DNA of 11,327 nucleotides from a virus (lineage: Duplodnaviria > Heunggongvirae > Uroviricota > Caudoviricetes). Positions 4,116 through 10,885 of the stretch are shown here, piece by piece; within the stretch, counting starts at the first letter, position 1, and each line of letters begins with the position of its first letter. Under the pieces are notes generated by a model. The model was given only the letters and a program-made list of their open reading frames with translations. It ran no database searches and had not been told where the DNA came from. Position numbers and translations under genes: made by a program. The stretch covers positions 1 to 11,327 of the IMG/VR virus record IMGVR_UViG_2778261591_000005; one strand, written 5' to 3'.

Positions 4116-4805
4116 CTAACCAAATCTGTTTATATTGAATGGTACTGATGAGATCACTTTAGACTGGATATAAAGCAGAGCTAACCCCTCTTTTTCGATG
4201 CTCCATGGTTGATAATTAGGGTTATCAGATAACACCATGATTTTACTTCCAATTTTTTGAAGTCTTTTCACGTAGCATTCTCCATCAAAACAAAATGCAT
4301 AAATGCCATCGCCATCAAAATAAGTTACTGTCTTATCGAGAAAAAGAAGGTCGCCAGGTGAGATTGTGGGAGCCATACTGTCTCCTCTGGCGTTACCTAT
4401 TTCTATATTTTTGAATGCCCGATTTCCAACAAGACGTCGGGCATATTCAGGATCAAGTTCTATTGAGCGCACTACATCTATCAAGTCACCACGGACATGA
4501 GTTCCATCACCGCAACTAAACTCAACATCAAGGACATTAAACACGACGCTATCTGTTCTTGTCTGGAGTTTCTCTTGCGAGGAAAAGGTTGGTGAGGAGT
4601 CTTCGCCTAAGAACCAAGATTGTGGATAACCGCTAATCTCTGATAAATGCGCGAGCTTATCACTTCGTGGAAATGTTTTTCCTGTTGTCCAGTACTGCAC
4701 TGATTGCGCACTCACACCTAACTTGCGGGCCAGTTGAGCCTGAGTCCATCCTTTTGCTTTCAGCATCGCGGCTATTCGATTTTCCGTGTTTTTGACGTTC
4801 TTCAT
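4116..4805 (-). CDS. cI-like prophage repressor (N-terminal HTH, C-terminal S24/LexA-type autopeptidase domain)
   Basis: HTH: GWTQAQLARKLGVSAQSVQYW. S24 catalytic motifs: GDSMAPTISPGDLLFLDK (Ser) and YVKRL (Lys) about 36 aa later. Possible Cys-Gly cleavage site in FSCGDG. ATG at 4805 preferred over the TTG at 4811 used by the track. Confidence 0.9.
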   Translation of the reverse strand: MKNVKNTENRIAAMLKAKGWTQAQLARKLGVSAQSVQYWTTGKTFPRSDKLAHLSEISGYPQSWFLGEDSSPTFSSQEKLQTRTDSVVFNVLDVEFSCGDGTHVRGDLIDVVRSIELDPEYARRLVGNRAFKNIEIGNARGDSMAPTISPGDLLFLDKTVTYFDGDGIYAFCFDGECYVKRLQKIGSKIMVLSDNPNYQPWSIEKEGLALLYIQSKVISSVPFNINRFG

Positions 4806-4938
4806 GACCAAATCCTGTGGGTTTCTTTACAAGGATAAATCTTTACTTGATTTTAGTGTATTCGATCCTTTTGCAACTTGCATGTTAATTTAAACTTGAT
4901 GTATTCTTGATTTATAAAGTTAATATTGGTGATTTGTT
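4806..4938. promoter_or_regulatory. divergent promoter/operator region of the cI-like/Cro-like switch
   Basis: 133-bp AT-rich spacer between divergent genes. Three copies of an 11-bp motif: ACTTGATTTTA (4845..4855), ACTTGATGTAT (4894..4904), TCTTGATTTAT (4905..4915), the last two in tandem. Palindromic TGCAA-c-TTGCA at 4871..4881. Candidate rightward promoter TTAAAC-N17-TATAAA (4890..4918). Confidence 0.5.
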
Positions 4939-5211
4939 ATGAAAGGAAATGATTACGACAAACTTCGTACATTAATTGCGCAAAATGCCATAGCGCGAAA
5001 TCTTGGTGTGACGCCGCAAGCGGTGAATCAGTGGTTTTCAAAAAACACAATTCCTGCTCGTTTTGTTTTACGCGTATGTGAAGTAGTTGCATGGAAGGTC
5101 ACGCCACATGACTTAAGGCCAGATCTTTATCCTCACCCTGAAGATGGAATTCCTGATTCGTTACGCAAAATTTCAAATCCAAGCCTAGCGCACACGGAAG
5201 ATGGGAAGTGA
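4939..5211 (+). CDS. Cro-like HTH regulator (YdaS/DUF1019-type)
   Basis: 90 aa. HTH LGVTPQAVNQWFSKNTIP followed by the family-typical VTPHDLRPDLYP motif. Divergent from the cI-like gene. Confidence 0.85.
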   Translation: MKGNDYDKLRTLIAQNAIARNLGVTPQAVNQWFSKNTIPARFVLRVCEVVAWKVTPHDLRPDLYPHPEDGIPDSLRKISNPSLAHTEDGK

Positions 5212-5281: not shown

Positions 5282-5575
5282 TTAGCGTTCGCTGAGAAGT
5301 TGTTGGTAAGCCTTAAAGGATGCGAACTGCATTCTACCTTCGGCATTGATTCCAATGCCTTCGCTTGTACACCAAGCGATGAACTCGGCTGTATCCGCTT
5401 CAACTTTAATAACTCGTTGCCCGCCTCTTTCGACACGCTTAATCAATTTTTCAGCGTCGTGTTTCCACTCGGTGTAACTGTCGGAGAGCACATCAGCATC
5501 AGTAAAAATATTTTTGAGCTCATGATACTGAATCGCATCGCGAAACCAGAATAAACCAACGGCCTGAACTTTCAT
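5282..5575 (-). CDS. hypothetical protein (97 aa), orphan gene convergent with the Cro-like gene
   Basis: Strong SD (AAGGAGGttcgacATG). Protein-like composition (MKVQAVGLFWFRDAIQYHELKNIFTDADVLSDSYTEWKHDAEKLIKRVERGG…). Opposite orientation to the flanking rightward operon. Confidence 0.65.
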   Translation of the reverse strand: MKVQAVGLFWFRDAIQYHELKNIFTDADVLSDSYTEWKHDAEKLIKRVERGGQRVIKVEADTAEFIAWCTSEGIGINAEGRMQFASFKAYQQLLSER

Positions 5576-5688: not shown

Positions 5689-6402
5689 ATGGCAGTGAAC
5701 ACCGCAATTTTTAACGGCAAAGCATCCATGACCAGCCTTGAAATCGCAGAGCTGGTGGGTAGTCAGCACTCAGATGTTAAACGTAGTATCGAACGCCTGG
5801 TTGCTAAAAACATCATCCGGAAACCGCCAATGGCTGTTTCCGAGAAAATCAATAACTTAGGTTTTAAAGTTCAATATGAGCATTACCTGTTTGAAGGAGA
5901 ACAAGGTAAACGCGACAGCATCATTGTCGTCGCTCAGCTCTGCCCTGAATTCACTGCTCGCCTGGTAGATCGCTGGCGCGAACTGGAAGAACAGATCCGT
6001 AAGCCAATGAGCGAAATCGAAATGGTTGCCGCGATGGCTCTTGAAGCTGTTCGTCAGCAGAAACGGATCACTCAGGTGGAAGAAAAAGTCAGCCACGTTG
6101 CCGAAACAGTTGAGCAAATCAAAAAGGGCACCATTCGTGAGGGCTATGCCGGATATCGCCAACTGAAAGCGAAAACCGGTTTGTCAGATGATAAATGCCG
6201 CAATCTGGTGAACGCTTATCAAATTCCTACAGACACCCATGAGTTCATGACGCCGGACGGATTGTTGTCACGTCGCGCAATTGTTGCCGTGGAACCTTTT
6301 ATGGCTGCTTTTTATCGGGTTATGGAGGAAGCAGAACCGCGAGGGACTCGCTGGTATCACCCGAAAATGGGGTTATTTCAGGTTATTGGTTGGCAGCGGT
6401 GA
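5689..6402 (+). CDS. Rha-family phage regulatory protein (paralog 1)
   Basis: N-terminal motif TSLEIAELVGSQHSDVKRSIERL matches the Rha-type signature. Start ambiguous: ATG 5653, ATG 5689 (AAGGAG directly abutting) or GTG 5695 (6-nt spacing). Confidence 0.7.
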   Translation: MAVNTAIFNGKASMTSLEIAELVGSQHSDVKRSIERLVAKNIIRKPPMAVSEKINNLGFKVQYEHYLFEGEQGKRDSIIVVAQLCPEFTARLVDRWRELEEQIRKPMSEIEMVAAMALEAVRQQKRITQVEEKVSHVAETVEQIKKGTIREGYAGYRQLKAKTGLSDDKCRNLVNAYQIPTDTHEFMTPDGLLSRRAIVAVEPFMAAFYRVMEEAEPRGTRWYHPKMGLFQVIGWQR

Positions 6403-6425
6403 AAAAAAGCCGGGAGTAACCCGGC
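6402..6425 (-). terminator. intrinsic terminator oriented for minus-strand transcription
   Basis: Minus strand: GCCGGG-uuacu-CCCGGC followed by UUUUUUU. On the plus strand the hairpin is preceded by A7 and not followed by a T-run, so it is unidirectional leftward. Confidence 0.55.
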
Positions 6426-6624
6426 TCACTCAACATCAATAACGGGGAGCTGTTTCGCATAAAACGGCTCCGAAACATCCAAGAACAGTTCTAAAGATAT
6501 CAGCAGCTATATGATCATTTCAAGACCAAATATTGATTCTGCAATTTCGGGACGTTACACTGTCTCTGCACCTTATAAAGCGGGTGCCGGGGGTCGCAGC
6601 CCGGAATTGTCAACGGCGATATAT

Positions 6625-6644
6625 GACGCGCCAGCGTCTTTTTT
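6625..6644 (+). terminator. candidate intrinsic terminator or attenuator on the plus strand between the two Rha-like genes
   Basis: GACGC-gcca-GCGTC followed by TTTTTT. Stem is short (5 bp) but GC-rich. Confidence 0.4.
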
Positions 6645-6810
6645 ATCGTCCGCGCTCACGCACGCCAGAATTATGGTGGGCTGGGCAGGGGAGCCGAAAG
6701 GCTCGCCGGTCTCCGTTGACGCCGGTACTGCGAACCCTGTTCAGTCTGCCACCAGTGAGTTTCGCAGCTCCGGTGGTGGAAGTTTTCCACAGTCAACGGA
6801 GGCTGCCATC

Positions 6811-7362
6811 ATGGCTACGATCCCAACCCTCACTCAACCTGAAATTGCCATCGTTGATGGTCAGGCTGTTACTTCATCCCTGGCTGTTGCCAATTTCTTC
6901 TCCAAGCGTCATGACGATGTACTGAAAAAGATCCGCACGCTTGAATGCTCCGCATCATTCACTGCCCGCAATTTTTCGGTGAGTGATTACACCGATTGCA
7001 CAGGCCGCAAACTACCTTGCTATCAAATCACCCGTGATGGCTTCGCGTTCCTTGCTATGGGCTTTACTGGCAAACGTGCAGCCCGGTTCAAAGAGGCATA
7101 CATCAACGCCTTTAACCAGATGGAGAAGAATTTATCTGGTGCTGACGCGGTTGATATGTCAGCTGTCGCACGAAACGCCAGAGGCGTATACCTGCATTTG
7201 CGTGAAATCCATCAAATCTGGACAAGCCAGCTTTATCCAATGCTTAAGGCCATTGAATCTCCGCTGGCTAGCAAACTGTACGACCGTGTTGGTGATGCTG
7301 TTTTTGGCGCTGCACTTGTTGATTCCAGGCTGAATGGTTCTGACAAGGAGGTTCGCCCATGA
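6811..7362 (+). CDS. Rha-family phage regulatory protein (paralog 2)
   Basis: Motif TSSLAVANFFSKRHDDVLKKIRTL. ATG at 6811 with GGAGG 9 nt upstream. The track's longer ORF from 6511 has a low-complexity G/S/A/P-rich N-terminal extension judged non-coding. Confidence 0.8.
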   Translation: MATIPTLTQPEIAIVDGQAVTSSLAVANFFSKRHDDVLKKIRTLECSASFTARNFSVSDYTDCTGRKLPCYQITRDGFAFLAMGFTGKRAARFKEAYINAFNQMEKNLSGADAVDMSAVARNARGVYLHLREIHQIWTSQLYPMLKAIESPLASKLYDRVGDAVFGAALVDSRLNGSDKEVRP

Positions 7363-7553
7363 TTAGTTACGAAATCATCATCTCCACTACGGAATACAGA
7401 AACGATGTATCAGTTCGCACGGATGTATCTGTCTGGCACCGTCGCTATAAATCCAGAAAAACAGCGGAACTGAAAGCGGCAGAGATGTGTGAAACCATCT
7501 CAATGAAAGGTAGCCCGGTTAAATACGTAACTACGGCGGAGGTGCGTCCATGA
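7359..7553 (+). CDS. hypothetical small protein (64 aa)
   Basis: AAGGAGG 8 nt upstream. ATGA overlap with the Rha paralog 2 stop. Confidence 0.55.
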   Translation: MISYEIIISTTEYRNDVSVRTDVSVWHRRYKSRKTAELKAAEMCETISMKGSPVKYVTTAEVRP

Positions 7554-7774
7554 TCCGCCACATCGTTAATTCCCTGTATCACCGATACAACCGTTGCCCC
7601 CGAGTGGGGCAGTGGTTCGCCACCAGCAACGGTCACGTTCTGCGGGTTTGCCTAGTCAACGCTGAAAGCCAGAAAGTCGTGTGCGAACTACAGGGGCGTA
7701 GCTACACCATCAGTTACCCTCTGGCGGTATTTCTGTCTGGAAAAATGTTTAAACGCCTGGGAGGTGTGTTATGA
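7550..7774 (+). CDS. hypothetical small protein (74 aa)
   Basis: GGAGG upstream. ATGA overlaps at both ends (coupled to the previous ORF and to the O-like gene). Confidence 0.55.
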   Translation: MIRHIVNSLYHRYNRCPRVGQWFATSNGHVLRVCLVNAESQKVVCELQGRSYTISYPLAVFLSGKMFKRLGGVL

Positions 7775-8580
7775 GCATGGAGCTGATGGTGAAAGCGATG
7801 AAAATTCGTGTGGGAAATCCGTTGCGAAAACTGGTTCTGATTAAGCTGGCTGATAATGCCAGCGATCAGGGCGAGTGCTGGCCCAGCTATCAGCATATTG
7901 CTGATCAGTGCGAGATTAGCAAACGTTCTGTGATGAATCATATTACGGCTCTTTGTGAATCTGGACTGGTAAAAAAAGTTTCCCGGAAAGGTGAAAAAGG
8001 TAACTCAAGTAATATCTATCTCCTTCATCTGGATGGTGCAGGAGATTCACTAGGGGGTAGTGCAAATAATTCACTATCTGGTGCAGCAAATTCACCAGGT
8101 AGTGCAGGAGTTGCACCAGGGGGTAGTGCAGGAGATTCACCCAGAACCAGTCACTCTTTTGAACCAGTCAAAGAACCAGTCAATGAATCAACTATTGGCG
8201 CATCCGCTGACGCGTCTGCACCAGCGCGTTCTGCCAGACAGGAATATTCACCGGAATTTGAACAGGCCTGGCAGGAATATCCCAAACGTGCTGGTGGTAA
8301 TTCCAAGTCAGCAGCCTTCAAAGCCTGGAAAGCCCGTATCAGGGAAGGTGTGACACCCGAAACCATGCTCAACGGTGTGAAACGCTATGCCGCCTGGGTG
8401 CGTGTCTCAGGAAATACCGGCACCCAGTTCGTGAAGCAGGCATCGACGTTCTTTGGCCCCGATCGGCACTTTGACGAATCCTGGCAACAGTCAGCAGCTC
8501 CCGGAGGTGGGCGGGGCAAAAGCCTCCCGATCTCGGGATTCAGTGAACAGGACTACGGCTCAACGAACTTCAACTGGTGA
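7771..8580 (+). CDS. phage replication initiator (lambda O-like; N-terminal HTH domain, low-complexity linker, C-terminal domain)
   Basis: N-terminal LRKLVLIKLADNASDQGECWPSYQHIADQCEISKRSVMNHITALCESGLV, a replisome-organiser type HTH. Central G/S/A-rich linker is encoded by iteron DNA. GGAGG SD. Followed by helicase loader and helicase genes. Confidence 0.85.
   Translation: MSMELMVKAMKIRVGNPLRKLVLIKLADNASDQGECWPSYQHIADQCEISKRSVMNHITALCESGLVKKVSRKGEKGNSSNIYLLHLDGAGDSLGGSANNSLSGAANSPGSAGVAPGGSAGDSPRTSHSFEPVKEPVNESTIGASADASAPARSARQEYSPEFEQAWQEYPKRAGGNSKSAAFKAWKARIREGVTPETMLNGVKRYAAWVRVSGNTGTQFVKQASTFFGPDRHFDESWQQSAAPGGGRGKSLPISGFSEQDYGSTNFNW
8034..8140. repeat. iterons (putative origin of replication) inside the O-like gene
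   Basis: Five roughly 20-bp direct repeats with 21-24 bp period (consensus about GGTAGTGCAGGAGATTCACC) at 8034, 8055, 8079, 8098 and 8121. Confidence 0.7.
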
Positions 8581-8597
8581 TTTTGTGGGGTGTGAAA

Positions 8598-9488
8598 ATG
8601 ATTAATTTCCTGAACAAACAACACATGCAACACGACAAAGCGCAATTACTCAACCGCAGTGCGGAGCTGGAGGAGGAGATGCAGTTTGCCCGTGCCGGGA
8701 AGCGTCCGTGGCGCTGTGAGCACTGGCTGGCAAGCGATGAGACTGCAGAGTGTGAGAAGCACGGAAAATATACTCGTCTGGTGTTGAAAGGGCCAGATAT
8801 TCGCGGAGAAACCATCAAACGGGTATCCGGATGTCCGCGCTGCATCGCAGAAGAACTGGATCACGTGCATGACGAATTACGCGCCCTGAAGGTTCGTGAA
8901 TTACTCGATCAGGCCGGTATTGCCCGCCGCTTTGAGAACTGCGAGTTTGAGAACTATCAGGCTGTGAATGCCGGGGCTCAGCGGAATCTTGATGCCTGCC
9001 AGCGTTATGTCGATGCCTGGAAGGATCACCTCGCGGCGGGTACCAGCATGATCATGATTGGCAATTGCGGTACCGGGAAAAATCACCTGGCTGTATCAAT
9101 GGCAAAAAATATTATTCGCCACCACCTGGCGACCGTCGAAATTACGGATGTTATGCGACTGACCCGCGCTGTGAAAAATACATGGCGTCACAATTCTGAA
9201 CGCACTGAAGATGAAGTTATTGACCATTTTGTATCACTGGACCTGCTCATCATTGATGAAGTCGGTGTTCAGTTTGGCACTCCTGCCGAGATAACCATCC
9301 TGCAGGAAATCATCAACGCGCGTTACGAAAGTATTCTGCCAACAATTCTGATCAGCAACCTGACGTTTGACCAGCTTAAGGAGTCCATTGGTGAGCGAAT
9401 TGTAGATCGCGTTACTGACGGCGGGCGTAACCGCCTGGTGTTTGGCTGGGAGAGCTACCGGGCAAATATCGGAGGTGTTGCCGCATGA
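8598..9488 (+). CDS. DnaC/IstB-like AAA+ helicase loader
   Basis: Walker A GNCGTGKNHLA, Walker B LLIIDEVG, sensor ISNLT. N-terminal region carries Cys/His pairs (CEH…CEKH…CPRC) suggesting a zinc-binding module. Start is ATG 8598 or GTG 8577 (overlapping the O-like stop). Confidence 0.85.
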   Translation: MINFLNKQHMQHDKAQLLNRSAELEEEMQFARAGKRPWRCEHWLASDETAECEKHGKYTRLVLKGPDIRGETIKRVSGCPRCIAEELDHVHDELRALKVRELLDQAGIARRFENCEFENYQAVNAGAQRNLDACQRYVDAWKDHLAAGTSMIMIGNCGTGKNHLAVSMAKNIIRHHLATVEITDVMRLTRAVKNTWRHNSERTEDEVIDHFVSLDLLIIDEVGVQFGTPAEITILQEIINARYESILPTILISNLTFDQLKESIGERIVDRVTDGGRNRLVFGWESYRANIGGVAA

Positions 9489-10885
9489 CCAGCCAGAACA
9501 ACCCGGCATGGCGTAACGATGACCTGGAAGGTGCGGTGATTGGCGCGTTTTTTCTGCGTGGGGCTGATCCGGAAGTGATGGATATTCTGGCCACGCTTCC
9601 GGCGGATGTATTTTTCGTGCGTCAGTACCGGGATATTTACGCGGGGATTTGCAGACAGGCCCGCGTATCCGGCGTCATTGACCCCGTGCTGCTGTGCAAT
9701 GAGATGCCGGAACTTGCCCCGGTGATTACCGACACCGGGCGCAAAACCTGGGTGAAGTCTTCACTGGAGCACTATGTTGCAGCGCTGCGACGCAATGCCG
9801 CACTGCGCGATGCAGAAAAAACACTGACTGAAGCATTACAGAATTTACGTGATGCACATACCTGCGAAGCGGCAGAAGATGCCCTGAAGGATGCGCAGAA
9901 CATGATGGCCTCACTGTCGACCGGAAAGGGCGTCATTCAGCCGGTTCACATTGATGATGTCCTTCCGGAAGTGGTCGACCGTGTTGAATGCCGCAATCAG
10001 GGACTGGAGAAATCCAGGGCGCTGATGACCGGTATTGATGAACTGGACGCAAAAACGGGCGGTATGGAGCCCGGAGACCTGGTATTCATTGCCGCCCGTC
10101 CTTCGATGGGGAAAACCGAACTTGCGCTGGACATCATCGACAAGGTGACTGAGCAGGGGCATGGCGTGCTTCTGTTCACCATGGAGATGGCGAACATCCA
10201 GATTGGTGAACGTATGGTGTCTGCTGCCGGTGGAATGCCGGTATCCCGTCTTAAGTCTGTTGCCCGTTTTGAAGATGAAGACTGGGCGCGTTTCTCACAG
10301 GGCGTGGGACGAATGACGGGGCGTAATATCTGGATGGTGGACCAGGCAAATCTGACCATTGATGAGATATGTGCAACCACGAGGTACCACCGGATGAAGC
10401 ATCCGGAAACGGCGCTGGTGGTGGTCGATTACCTCGGCCTGATTAAAACCCGCAGCACGGGGCGTCACGACCTTGCGGTGGGGGAAATCTCAAAGGGACT
10501 TAAAAGCCTGGCAAAATCCGGCGGTTTTCCGCTGATTGCTCTGAGCCAGCTCTCCCGCGGCGTGGAATCCAGACCCAATAAACGTCCCATGAACTCAGAC
10601 CTGAAAAACTCCGGGGAAATCGAGGCTGATGCCGACATCATTCTGATGCTTTACAGGGATGAGGTGTATAACCCGGATACACAGGCGAGAGGCATAGCAG
10701 AAATCAACATCACGAAACAGCGTAATGGCACGCTCGGGACCATTTACCGGCGTTTTCATAACGGACATTTTCTGCCTGTGGACCAGGAGAGTGCCCGGGT
10801 TCTTTCCACACCCATGACGCCGGGCAATCCGCGCAGATACAGCAATAACCGCATGTCGGGCAGTAAAGCGGAGCGTTTATTTTGA
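9485..10885 (+). CDS. DnaB-family replicative DNA helicase
   Basis: 466 aa. Walker A ARPSMGKT, Walker B VVVDYLGLI, ALSQLSR arginine-finger region, and the DnaB signature DLKNSGEIEADADIILMLYRDEVY. ATGA overlap with the loader gene. Confidence 0.92.
   Translation: MTSQNNPAWRNDDLEGAVIGAFFLRGADPEVMDILATLPADVFFVRQYRDIYAGICRQARVSGVIDPVLLCNEMPELAPVITDTGRKTWVKSSLEHYVAALRRNAALRDAEKTLTEALQNLRDAHTCEAAEDALKDAQNMMASLSTGKGVIQPVHIDDVLPEVVDRVECRNQGLEKSRALMTGIDELDAKTGGMEPGDLVFIAARPSMGKTELALDIIDKVTEQGHGVLLFTMEMANIQIGERMVSAAGGMPVSRLKSVARFEDEDWARFSQGVGRMTGRNIWMVDQANLTIDEICATTRYHRMKHPETALVVVDYLGLIKTRSTGRHDLAVGEISKGLKSLAKSGGFPLIALSQLSRGVESRPNKRPMNSDLKNSGEIEADADIILMLYRDEVYNPDTQARGIAEINITKQRNGTLGTIYRRFHNGHFLPVDQESARVLSTPMTPGNPRRYSNNRMSGSKAERLF

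Follow-up and report, generated by a model that had tools for sequence, protein, structure and literature searches.

What lies in the interval of about 400 bp that separates the two Rha-family genes of this phage? The window (the whole stretch of 11,327 nt that was analysed) carries the two genes on the same strand:

5695–6402, plus strand: Rha-1 gene, Roi/Ant-like (Pfam Phage_pRha, PHROG 63)
6811–7362, plus strand: Rha-2 coding sequence (183 aa, ATG at 6811–6813), a Rha-family putative antirepressor or regulator, and the gene proposed to be regulated

Rha-2 is part of the Rha/Ant network. It matched Pfam Phage_pRha (E = 7e-31, residues 21–106) as well as the anti-repressor PHROGs 373 and 63, and its alignment to PHROG 518 (Rha-like) begins with residue 14 at profile position 17, consistent with a start at 6811. 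The first-pass annotation had described the interval (6402–6810) as non-coding and as containing opposing terminators, with a possible oop-like antisense RNA on the minus strand and an attenuator-type or tR1-like leader on the plus strand. In our reading the interval is very probably an RNA-based immunity module controlling the antirepressor-like Rha-2 gene, of the type of P1/P7 c4, P4 CI and Gifsy-1 IsrK.

The Rfam search that the first-pass annotation had proposed as a check gave two full-length matches on the plus strand, in the canonical order and above the curated thresholds. The first was isrK, a family of Hfq-binding RNAs (RF01394, 58.7 bits for a gathering score of 50, E = 9e-11, model positions 1–77 of 77, terminator included) and the second was C4 (RF01695, 78.8 bits for a gathering score of 45, E = 1.6e-14, model positions 1–87 of 87). 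A tRNA/tmRNA scan of the whole window returned no match. The elements of the isrK part were as follows:

6533–6561, plus strand: predicted promoter PisrK (TTGATT at 6533–6538, 17-nt spacer, TACACT at 6556–6561), with a start predicted near 6568
6568–6644, plus strand: IsrK sRNA gene, in which two hairpins at the 5' side are followed by a single-stranded linker and an intrinsic terminator
6594–6599, plus strand: a1 site UCGCAG, the complement of C4 a', within the loop of IsrK hairpin 2
6609–6616, plus strand: b1 site GUCAACGG, the complement of the C4 b' loop, within the IsrK linker
6625–6644, plus strand: IsrK intrinsic terminator from the terminator scan, a GACGC-GCCA-GCGUC stem-loop (6625–6638) followed by U6 (T6 at 6639–6644)

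The candidate plus-strand promoter noticed earlier was indeed present as a sequence. Its hexamers scored 8/12, under the cut-off of the promoter scan, and were read directly from the sequence; it lies 7 nt upstream of the isrK match, whose model begins at 6568, and is invariant in the window, PhiR49_2, phiP27, SfV and 57 colinear E. coli-type copies. A LexA-box-like element (CTGT-N8-ACAG) controlling PisrK was not found by eye. The hairpin with T6 that had been noted at 6625–6644 corresponds to the IsrK terminator and to the 3' end of the Rfam match, and hairpin 1 of IsrK showed compensatory changes at all five of its pairs. The stem of the terminator is weak, with 5 bp, and the terminator is for this reason a probable point of partial readthrough. 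In Gifsy-1, the isrK promoter serves both the sRNA and the downstream gene, and readthrough past the equivalent terminator was demonstrated (PMC4825925).

The second RNA and the sequences facing it occupy the rest of the interval:

6669–6756, plus strand: C4/CI-type antisense RNA, closed by a long stem and containing a GAAA hairpin, the b' hairpin and a single-stranded a', with a 3' CCACCA
6711–6720, plus strand: b' CUCCGUUGAC, exposed as the loop of the second hairpin of C4, complementary to b2 over 10 nt and to b1 over 8 nt
6728–6734, plus strand: a' CUGCGAA, a single-stranded C4 segment complementary to a2 over 7 nt and to a1 over 6 nt
6761–6767, plus strand: a2 target site UUCGCAG in the Rha-2 leader
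6773–6778, plus strand: GUGGUG between a2 and b2, invariant in 28/28 aligned specificity types
6792–6802, plus strand: b2 target site GUCAACGGAG, overlapping the Rha-2 Shine-Dalgarno GGAGG (6798–6802)

The GC-rich structured stretch reported before Rha-2 is the C4 RNA, the 88-nt segment of which folded with an MFE of −47.8 kcal/mol (z = −4.3). Its 17-bp closing stem and GAAA hairpin were 100% paired, compensatory changes being present. The closing stem is tRNA-acceptor-like, and the 3' CCACCA is visible in the sequence; the invariant GUGGUG might offer the C4 3' strand, CCACCAC, an alternative partner. The Rfam c4-a1b1 model (RF03163) reached 17.2 bits for a gathering score of 46.7, and the isrK model covers that segment instead.

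Homologous loci retrieved with a C4-core pattern numbered 130 instances, 89 of them unique, and provided 28 (b', a') combinations, taken as specificity types. Across the 89 unique loci, the two exposed C4 segments co-varied with two sites at the Rha-2 Shine-Dalgarno and with two further sites within IsrK. There were approximately 16 variants of b', each with a matching b1 and b2 of its own, and approximately seven variants of a', co-varying with a1 and a2. Changes on both sides were seen in the 28 types at 6/7 pairs of a'-a2, 8/10 of b'-b2, 5/6 of a1-a' and 7/8 of b1-b'. Overall, 94–96% of the cells were paired across the types compared with about 40% when the partners were slid (91% for a'-a2, 100% for a1-a'), and the observed co-variation was reached by none of 500 shuffles. 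The own partner was more complementary than foreign ones at every site (8.9 versus 4.6 nt for b2, 7.7 versus 4.5 for b1, 7.0 versus 4.2 for a2, and 6.8 versus 4.6 for a1), and the sites stood at fixed offsets from C4, at −78 for a1, −62 for b1, +90 for a2 and +121 for b2. In the window, b' pairs from 6711–6720 with 6792–6801, a local duplex of −22.5 kcal/mol. The fold of the readthrough leader (6568–6830, MFE −126.5 kcal/mol, z = −6.4) paired b' with b2 and the Shine-Dalgarno, and a' with a2, base for base. Duplex energies of whole molecules (C4 with the target, C4 with IsrK) were not clearly better than those of shuffles; they are uninformative since all the partners are GC-rich, and site-specific co-variation was used instead. 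These results establish that isrK and C4 belong to their families, that the sites co-vary three ways, and that the Shine-Dalgarno is predicted to be sequestered.

The same hairpin and T6 between a promoter and a downstream operon would also be expected of a protein-independent attenuator or tR1-like terminator working without a trans-acting RNA. The terminated product belongs to a curated sRNA family, and the co-variation of a1b1, a'b' and a2b2 would have no role in such an element. Furthermore, in Gifsy-1 trans-activation by IsrK was shown experimentally: the short RNA pairs with the orf45/STnc1160 region of the readthrough isrK-orf45-anrP mRNA and thereby activates its translation (PMC4825925). 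A plain attenuator is therefore extremely unlikely. What survives of the attenuator-type leader is its outline, with a promoter, a short terminated transcript, a structured leader and a readthrough logic close to a known system; the control itself would be exerted by RNA-RNA pairing at the Rha-2 ribosome-binding site. The simple tR1-like terminator must be abandoned, as the short transcript is the IsrK sRNA and the stem-loops belong to the C4/CI-type antisense RNA.

The isrK and C4 switch of this interval is a known system, the RNA immunity switch of P1, P4 and Gifsy-1. As judged from the sequences, the a1b1, a'b' and a2b2 layout is the same as in P1/P7 immI, P4 seqA-CI-seqC and Gifsy-1 isrK-orf45-anrP. 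The immI locus of P1/P7, organized as c4 antisense RNA, icd and ant1/ant2, was reportedly worked out by Citron and Schuster in 1990 and 1992 and by Heinrich et al. in 1994. In these phages, the a' and b' segments exposed by C4 are complementary to an upstream a1b1 and to a2b2, which lies at a ribosome-binding site; C4 is cut from a longer precursor (in P1 by RNase P) and represses the antirepressor in trans. The antirepressor operon is the target, the blocked ribosome-binding site in P1 is that of icd, with ant affected through coupling and Rho, and specificity differences lead to heteroimmunity. The C4 of the window is a member of the C4 covariance model with the same arrangement of a' and b' facing a2b2 and a1b1. 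It differs from that of P1 in that b2 covers the Shine-Dalgarno of the Rha gene itself rather than that of icd, and in that a1b1 forms a separately terminated sRNA, IsrK. Satellite P4 (seqA, CI RNA/seqB, seqC) gave the same two Rfam matches in the same order (isrK at 8615–8692 with 60.8 bits, C4 at 8420–8507 with 74.9 bits), and in both genomes the module is located upstream of replication functions. The outcome in P4 is premature transcription termination of the replication operon (PMC4825925).

The closest likeness was with the isrK-orf45(STnc1160)-anrP locus of Gifsy-1 in Salmonella, studied by Hershko-Shalev et al. 2016 (PMC4825925). The order is the same, with a promoter, IsrK and its leaky terminator, a C4-like RNA and an antirepressor-family gene. 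Both Rfam families are present, IsrK has sequences complementary to the C4 region, and an ATG is found at the 5' edge of C4, approximately at +106/107 from the start. A Gifsy-1-type locus of our collection (L007), 98.5% identical to Gifsy-1, could be aligned column for column with the window locus. The two differ in their specificity sequences and in the type of promoter (TTGATT/TACACT here). The regulated start in Gifsy-1 is that of orf45, coupled to anrP, and orf45 ends there in an ATGA overlap, whereas the equivalent frame here is stop-free and fused to the downstream gene. This gene encodes a Phage_pRha protein, with no similarity to AnrP detectable by BLASTP. The module of the window lies in the early right operon, between a cro-like gene and the genes for replication, whereas that of Gifsy-1 lies beside antQ.

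We propose the following sequence of events, in which readthrough, processing and the direction of regulation are borrowed from the homologues. Transcription would begin near 6568 from the promoter at 6533–6561, and most transcripts would end at the weak terminator (6625–6644), giving an IsrK sRNA of approximately 77 nt that displays a1 and b1. Some readthrough transcripts would carry the C4-like RNA (6669–6756) and the Rha-2 leader. The b' and a' segments of C4 would then pair with b2 (6792–6801, over the Shine-Dalgarno) and a2 (6761–6767), blocking Rha-2 translation, either in cis on the readthrough RNA or in trans after excision of C4, by analogy with P1. Free IsrK, which has the same a and b sequences as the target, would act as an anti-antisense decoy competing for a'b' and would turn translation on. 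Since a' and b' differ among phages, the switch would be phage-specific, as expected for heteroimmunity. Antirepressor activity of Rha-2 is assumed, from the family names and by analogy with the homologues; the repressor of the prophage corresponds to ORF 4116–4811. The genes downstream of Rha-2 overlap stop to start, and a polar effect on these translationally coupled genes (7359–10885), again modelled on the homologues, is the only, indirect, route by which the module could possibly gate the replication genes. A small RNA blocking the initiation of antirepressor translation is also found in the sar/ant system of P22, where sar is transcribed in true cis-antisense to the ant leader; the regulator proposed here is in sense, upstream and on the same strand.

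The first-pass annotation had seen no convincing ORF between the two Rha genes. A long frame does run through the interval into Rha-2:

6511–7362, plus strand: ORF of 283 codons, a single RefSeq/PGAP CDS (“Rha family” or “ash family”)
6673–6675, plus strand: ATG at the 5' border of C4, in the position that the orf45 start has in Gifsy-1, in frame 46 codons upstream of Rha-2 with no intervening stop

An ORF is annotated across the interval in homologues as well, which on annotation alone would formally count as a refutation of the first-pass description; it does not behave as a conserved protein. If the interval were protein-coding, it would correspond to the N-terminal “Ash” domain of a 283-aa Rha/Ash regulator, and the RNA motifs would be incidental. 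The frame is open and in phase with Rha-2, PGAP gives one CDS, sister copies are labelled “ash family protein”, and residues 16–111 matched Pfam Phage_ASH (PF10554) with 62.1 bits for a gathering score of 26 (E = 8e-17). Moreover, among 65 unique E. coli-type copies, stop triplets were seen at 0 positions in this frame compared with 12 and 17 in the other two, and in 57 colinear copies the 16 polymorphic stop positions were all out of frame (naive P ~0.0015). In the Stx-phage literature, Rha/Ash are handled as protein domains (PMC8951638).

The first 100 codons of this ORF are the translated DNA of the promoter, IsrK and C4, and the way in which they vary argues against a protein. Codon-periodic constraint and a frame kept in all relatives were both sought in the Phage_ASH region, and neither was observed. 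The excess of variability expected at third positions was absent (entropies at codon positions 1/2/3 of 0.33/0.35/0.16 in isrK, 0.81/0.72/0.74 in the spacer and 0.48/0.41/0.23 from C4 to the ATG), and variability followed the RNA loops and the compensatory stems. In other subfamilies, the Gifsy-like one included, the frame was cut after 14, 17, 35 or 45 codons, or the downstream ATG was out of frame, whereas the RNA structure and complementarity were kept. The ATG at 6511 precedes the isrK start and lacks a good Shine-Dalgarno. In P4, the same Phage_ASH match falls on an obsolete “cI protein” CDS overlapping the CI RNA, and orf45 is reported to be nucleotide-conserved yet amino-acid-variable (review PMC12197685). 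Several long upstream extensions of the frame at other loci gave low-complexity, junk-like translations. A purely protein-coding interval is on these grounds very unlikely. Although the ORF spans the interval, the conserved entity is the RNA, because the conservation of the ORF shows no codon periodicity and its frame is broken in other subfamilies. The idea that the module sits inside genuine long multi-domain ORFs was considered for loci where the frame is open for 300–1400 nt upstream, and was rejected, the upstream translations resembling low-complexity shadow ORFs. One long upstream extension of the frame was a frameshifted Rha-1.

Translation of the region may also matter, since the frame through the module is stop-free in all 65 unique E. 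coli-type copies. The RNAs would then regulate as proposed, and the transit of ribosomes, from the ATG at 6673 or on upstream rightward transcripts, would in addition serve coupling or protection against Rho; this transit would explain why the frame is kept open in the E. coli-type subfamily. The ATG at the C4 edge is invariant among the aligned specificity types, and the stop-to-start overlap of the genes after Rha-2 is compatible with polarity. In the Gifsy-1-type locus the same ATG opens a 45-codon ORF that ends in an ATGA overlap with anrP. Translation of orf45 was demonstrated in Gifsy-1, and expression of anrP requires it (PMC4825925, Table 1C). On the other side, the open frame could be mere inheritance in a young lineage, the stop statistics take positions as independent, and initiation at 6673 or 6511 in E. 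coli is hypothetical. Such a dual use is conceivable and somewhat doubtful. If it holds, ribosomes from early rightward promoter transcripts or from the ATG at 6673 would melt the switch and override RNA immunity in lytic growth, and an internal promoter, an sRNA and an antisense RNA would be embedded within a translated frame. The details of translational control may differ from those of Gifsy-1 because the orf45-equivalent ATG (6673) is fused in frame to Rha-2.

The minus strand was the place proposed for an oop-like RNA. The relevant elements were:

6402–6427, minus strand: intrinsic terminator GAGCCGGG-UUACU-CCCGGCUU followed by a U run, from the terminator scan
6494–6523, minus strand: promoter-like site TTGAAA-18-TGaTATCTT, back-to-back with PisrK, the −35 hexamers being 9 bp apart
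6402–6487, minus strand: candidate RNA of approximately 86 nt, in which a conserved block on the 5' side is followed by a variable hairpin and the terminator

The terminator is real. Previously placed at 6402–6425, it was found with a stem at 6427–6407 (eight pairs, six of them G-C) and a U run, corresponding to A7 on the plus strand (6402–6408), and it abuts the Rha-1 stop TGA (6400–6402). The flank 6403–6530 travels with Rha-1 as a single module: segment 6395–6535 was only found adjoining Rha-1, in nine phage records and 223/5426 E. coli genomes, and phiP27 and SfV possess the RNA module without Rha-1. The nine copies in phage genomes were all at least 99% identical and carry no comparative information; E. 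coli genomes and viral contigs provided only three alleles, approximately 70% identical. When viral contigs were scanned with a generic terminator pattern, most matches were unrelated terminators. In the three alleles, the stem and an A7–8 tract were kept with a changed loop, and one variant (L054) formed U-G on the minus strand, where the plus strand has C-A. The promoter-like site noticed earlier at 6523–6494 was present, with a TG before the −10, and its match to the consensus, taken alone, was not above chance (one match in 2 kb, 1.9 expected from shuffles).

An RNA of approximately 86 nt running from 6487 to 6402 is plausible as a prediction from these signals. That the promoter and the terminator make a real small RNA is possible, if short of probable. 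The terminator is canonical with U7; the three alleles share the −35, the 18-nt spacing and a TGn-extended −10 (TATCTT in the window, TATTTT in the alleles approximately 70% identical), the spacer sequence being different. At the predicted 5' end, a 14-mer (6474–6487) was identical in alleles A and B and its 10-nt core was kept in allele C. The middle hairpin was retained with differing sequences (CTTC/GAAG in B, CTGC/GCAG in C), one compensatory change included, and the candidate folded at −28.8 kcal/mol (z = −3.5). Other observations weigh against it. The alleles number only three and always adjoin the same gene. In the middle hairpin, two point variants form G-U on the plus strand, where the minus strand has A-C, and ATATGA and TTTCAAG, both conserved, are also part of the start of the plus-strand ORF. 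No Rfam family was matched: at permissive E-values, the minus strand of 6380–6860 gave sub-threshold, terminator-driven matches only (sroD, PrrF, SorX/Y), the best being sroD with 24.5 bits for a threshold of 50. Within the window, the best target of the conserved 14-mer had three mismatches, at chance level.

The comparison with lambda oop is limited. Like oop, the candidate would be a small leftward transcript (~77–86 nt) with a promoter and an intrinsic terminator of its own, encoded between the immunity region and the genes for replication. The oop RNA covers the 3' part of the cII coding sequence in antisense and works through RNase III (review PMC12197685), whereas the candidate overlaps only the TGA stop of Rha-1, and no coding sequence, and shares no sequence family with oop. 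The antisense role initially attributed to it is not retained. The terminator might instead insulate the Rha-1 module at its 3' end, blocking stray leftward antisense transcription into Rha-1, with no functional sRNA. Its position against the Rha-1 stop and its constant association with Rha-1 fit this role, and divergent transcription could arise accidentally in the A/T-rich region upstream of PisrK. An insulator leaves unexplained the conservation of the 14-mer and the hairpin retained between promoter and terminator across diverged alleles, and we regard it as a serious possibility, a little short of an even one. If a small RNA is made, the minus-strand unit (6523 to 6402) would be a new phage sRNA with a conserved 5' seed UGUUCUUGGAUGUU, acting in trans or interfering with PisrK. 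To the more novel readings, namely a new phage sRNA from this unit and a frame through promoter, IsrK and C4 that is purposely open in the E. coli subfamily, we give a rather low probability.

The isrK and C4 module leaves the current mechanistic understanding of such switches unchanged. Its consequences are in the first place for annotation. RefSeq and Pfam list as a protein domain of unknown function (“ash family” or “Rha family”) what is an RNA switch, and “Rha/Ash domain proteins” are discussed accordingly in recent work on Stx phages (PMC8951638). Recognition of IsrK and C4 leads to a corrected Rha-2 start at 6811. The lambdoid prophage module matched approximately 1000 of 5426 complete E. 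coli genomes and many Stx-converting phages. By analogy with the known systems, it would set the timing of expression of Rha-2, a putative antirepressor gene of the Rha family, and it may also affect the replication genes that follow Rha-2 in translational coupling. With its approximately 16 × 7 specificity combinations, the control of this gene is predicted to be phage-specific, that is, heteroimmune.

The studied interval belongs to the early region of an E. coli lambdoid prophage, and many RefSeq chromosomes hold identical copies of the window. From left to right, the order is:

4116-4811, minus strand, S24/HTH repressor
4939-5211, cro/YdaS-like gene
5282-5575, minus strand, 97-aa ORF of unknown function
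5695-6402, Rha-1
studied interval
ATG at 6811, Rha-2
right of Rha-2, chain of genes with stop/start overlaps, ending with DnaC-like and DnaB-like replication genes

The 97-aa ORF between the cro-like gene and Rha-1 corresponded over its full length to PHROG 4753 (unknown function) and is kept beside Rha-1 in other E. coli prophages.

Two matches exceeded the curated thresholds in an Rfam scan of the window, both on the plus strand and covering the full model: isrK (RF01394) at 6568-6644 (58.7 bits, threshold 50) and C4 antisense RNA (RF01695) at 6669-6756 (78.8 bits, threshold 45). By its sequence and structure match to the two curated models, the locus is a member of both families. The sequence features listed in the first-pass annotation were all correctly placed, but the absence of a convincing ORF between the Rha genes was wrong. 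Its plus-strand promoter TTGATT-17-TACACT (PisrK, 6533..6561) scored 8/12, under the scanner cut-off, yet is invariant among homologues, and the terminator scan recovered the hairpin and T6 at 6625-6644. Given the isrK match, whose model begins 7 nt past the -10 box, these features constitute the IsrK sRNA gene; the GC-rich stem-loops are likewise present and, given the C4 match, correspond to a C4/CI-type RNA. Neither RNA had been named.

A 283-codon ORF (6511-7362), in frame with Rha-2 and annotated in RefSeq as one CDS, crosses the whole interval. The Pfam domain Phage_ASH covers its residues 16-111, a stretch that coincides precisely with the -10 box together with IsrK, C4 and the target. 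Among 57 colinear E. coli-type copies, no third-position excess in variability was observed (codon positions 1/2/3: 0.33/0.35/0.16 in isrK and 0.81/0.72/0.74 in the spacer), and variability tracked the loops of the RNAs and the stems with compensatory changes. Other subfamilies lose the frame after 14, 17, 35 or 45 codons, or have the downstream ATG in a different frame. The lack of a third-position excess and the broken frames indicate, from sequence comparison, that the conserved entity of the interval is RNA. The true start of Rha-2 is 6811, with which the PHROG and Pfam domain offsets are consistent.

The ORF frame contained no stop position in 65 unique E. coli-subfamily copies, against 12 and 17 in the other two frames, and all 16 polymorphic stop positions of the 57 colinear copies were out of frame. 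The ATG at 6673, the orf45 equivalent, is invariant and fused in frame to Rha-2. Because of this stop-free frame and fusion, ribosome transit through the module may matter, by analogy with orf45 translation in Gifsy-1.

The domain Phage_ASH (PF10554) and the PGAP label "ash family protein" appear to be the conceptual translation of the isrK/seqA, C4/CI and target RNA region (6511-6810 in the window, 8168-8584 in phage P4, L128). In P4 the domain falls on an obsolete "cI gene product" CDS overlapping the CI RNA. A 2022 Stx-phage paper still took "Rha/Ash" for protein domains whose function is unknown (PMC8951638). In SfV (L002, 2677-3000) and similar loci (L046, L066, L057), the module frame is open 320-430 nt further upstream. 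The translation of this extension is Cys/Arg/Ser-rich and junk-like, yet kept between phages, which hints that the DNA upstream of PisrK contains one more conserved element, either non-coding or a gene read in a different frame or from the opposite strand. In one viral contig (L038, 458-1906, minus strand), Rha-1 is frameshifted near its C-terminus, giving a 482-codon ORF that crosses the intergenic region, IsrK and C4 and enters the downstream gene, probably through mutation or assembly error.

Complementary sites were first spotted by eye in a four-phage alignment:

6594-6599, plus strand, a1, UCGCAG, loop of the second IsrK hairpin, complementary to a'
6609-6616, plus strand, b1, GUCAACGG, within IsrK, complementary to b'
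6711-6720, plus strand, b', CUCCGUUGAC, loop of the C4 hairpin
6728-6734, plus strand, a', CUGCGAA, single-stranded in C4
6761-6767, plus strand, a2, UUCGCAG, complementary to a'
6792-6801, plus strand, b2, GUCAACGGAG, complementary to b', overlapping the Shine-Dalgarno (SD) GGAGG of the Rha-2 ATG 6811

A C4-core pattern retrieved 120 viral contigs with 130 instances (89 unique), which sorted into 28 b'/a' combinations. The four sites a1, b1, a2 and b2 lie at fixed offsets from C4 and match their own C4 far better than those of other types (own versus foreign complementarity of 8.9 and 4.6 nt for b2, 7.7 and 4.5 for b1, 7.0 and 4.2 for a2, 6.8 and 4.6 for a1). In the alignment of the 28 types, changes on both sides were seen at 8/10 pairs of b'-b2, 7/8 of b1-b', 6/7 of a'-a2 and 5/6 of a1-a', and the C4 closing stem and GAAA hairpin were 100% paired. 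Overall, 94-96% of the cells were paired, compared to about 40% after sliding the partners by 1-3 columns, and covariation as high as that seen arose in none of 500 shuffles. For the readthrough leader (6568-6830), the fold of minimum energy (-126.5 kcal/mol, z = -6.4, compared to a sum of -104.8 kcal/mol for its three parts folded apart) placed b' on b2/SD and a' on a2, base for base. Covariation, own-versus-foreign matching and the leader fold together establish the pairing scheme at the comparative level, and from it we infer an effect on expression.

Between a2 and b2, the segment GUGGUG (6773-6778) is invariant in 28/28 aligned specificity types and repeats the C4 5' strand (AUGGUGGG). 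It is therefore a possible rival partner for the C4 3' strand CCACCAC and, by competing for it, could constitute an alternative structure or a processing signal. In the 3' flank of Rha-1 (6432-6457), UCAAUAACGGGGAG and UUUCGCAU resemble b2 and a2 in reversed order, probably by chance or as the remnant of an old module. Some viral contigs (L022, L060, L091, L034) contain two isrK-C4 modules, separated by about 0.9-1.3 kb, whose a'/b' specificities differ (in L022, at 9756 and 11068 on the minus strand); these are tandem heteroimmune switches within one phage.

On the minus strand, the terminator scan confirmed the opposing terminator, with its stem at 6427..6407 and a U run after it. The proposed promoter TTGAAA-18-TATCTT is present and is the sole promoter-like match in 2 kb, but its consensus match, taken alone, is not above chance, as shuffles yield 1.9 against the 1 found. 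The segment 6395-6535 was found only next to the Rha-1 gene (9 phage records, 223/5426 genomes); in phiP27 and SfV the RNA module occurs with no such segment. Among three alleles at about 70% identity, the stem and A7-8 tract of the terminator are kept while its loop differs, and all have TTGAAA as the -35, TATCTT or TATTTT as a TGn-extended -10, and 18 nt between the two. The conserved block AACATCCAAGAACA (6474-6487), of which the third allele keeps a 10-nt core, would form the 5' terminus of the candidate RNA. The middle hairpin is retained by differing sequences, with one compensatory change, and folding of the predicted RNA of 86 nt gave z = -3.5. Such conservation between diverged alleles makes a small RNA a reasonable, if tentative, candidate; the alleles are three only, and two middle-hairpin variants favour pairing on the plus strand. 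No Rfam family matched it and no target was found within the window. Unlike lambda oop RNA, it overlaps no coding sequence, so the oop-like reading is not retained. Its candidate promoter and PisrK stand back-to-back (6518-6538), with the -35 hexamers only 9 bp apart, and RNA polymerase could bind one at the expense of the other or be shared between them.

In the most likely working of the locus, C4 RNA, in cis or in trans once processed, would cover the Rha-2 SD, and IsrK, bearing the target's own a and b sequences, would titrate C4 and derepress Rha-2. The numerous a'/b' combinations would give the switch its phage specificity. By analogy with P4, the coupled replication genes downstream may also undergo a polar effect. 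In P1 and P7, c4 RNA pairs at a ribosome-binding site and blocks Ant synthesis, and heteroimmunity is set by c4.

The working proposed for the locus is like that of P1 immI, P4 immunity and the Gifsy-1 isrK locus. P4 shows the identical pair of Rfam matches in unchanged order, and a locus 98.5% identical to Gifsy-1 (L007) aligns with the window along its whole length. In Gifsy-1, the isrK promoter gives a short sRNA and a translationally silent readthrough mRNA; short IsrK pairs in trans with the orf45/STnc1160 region, so that orf45 and the coupled antirepressor anrP are translated, and the authors likened IsrK to P4 seqA and STnc1160 to P4 CI RNA (PMC4825925). The present locus differs in that b2 lies directly over the SD of the Rha gene, the orf45 frame continues into the downstream gene, the protein under control belongs to Phage_pRha and the module has its place inside the early right operon. 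All this amounts to variation inside an already known, catalogued system, and Williams and colleagues had already noted CI and seqA relatives, detected by the C4 and isrK profiles, inside "Bro network" genes (PMC10111431). The useful gain is a correction of the annotation, with an RNA module and a Rha-2 start at 6811, and one modest sRNA candidate.
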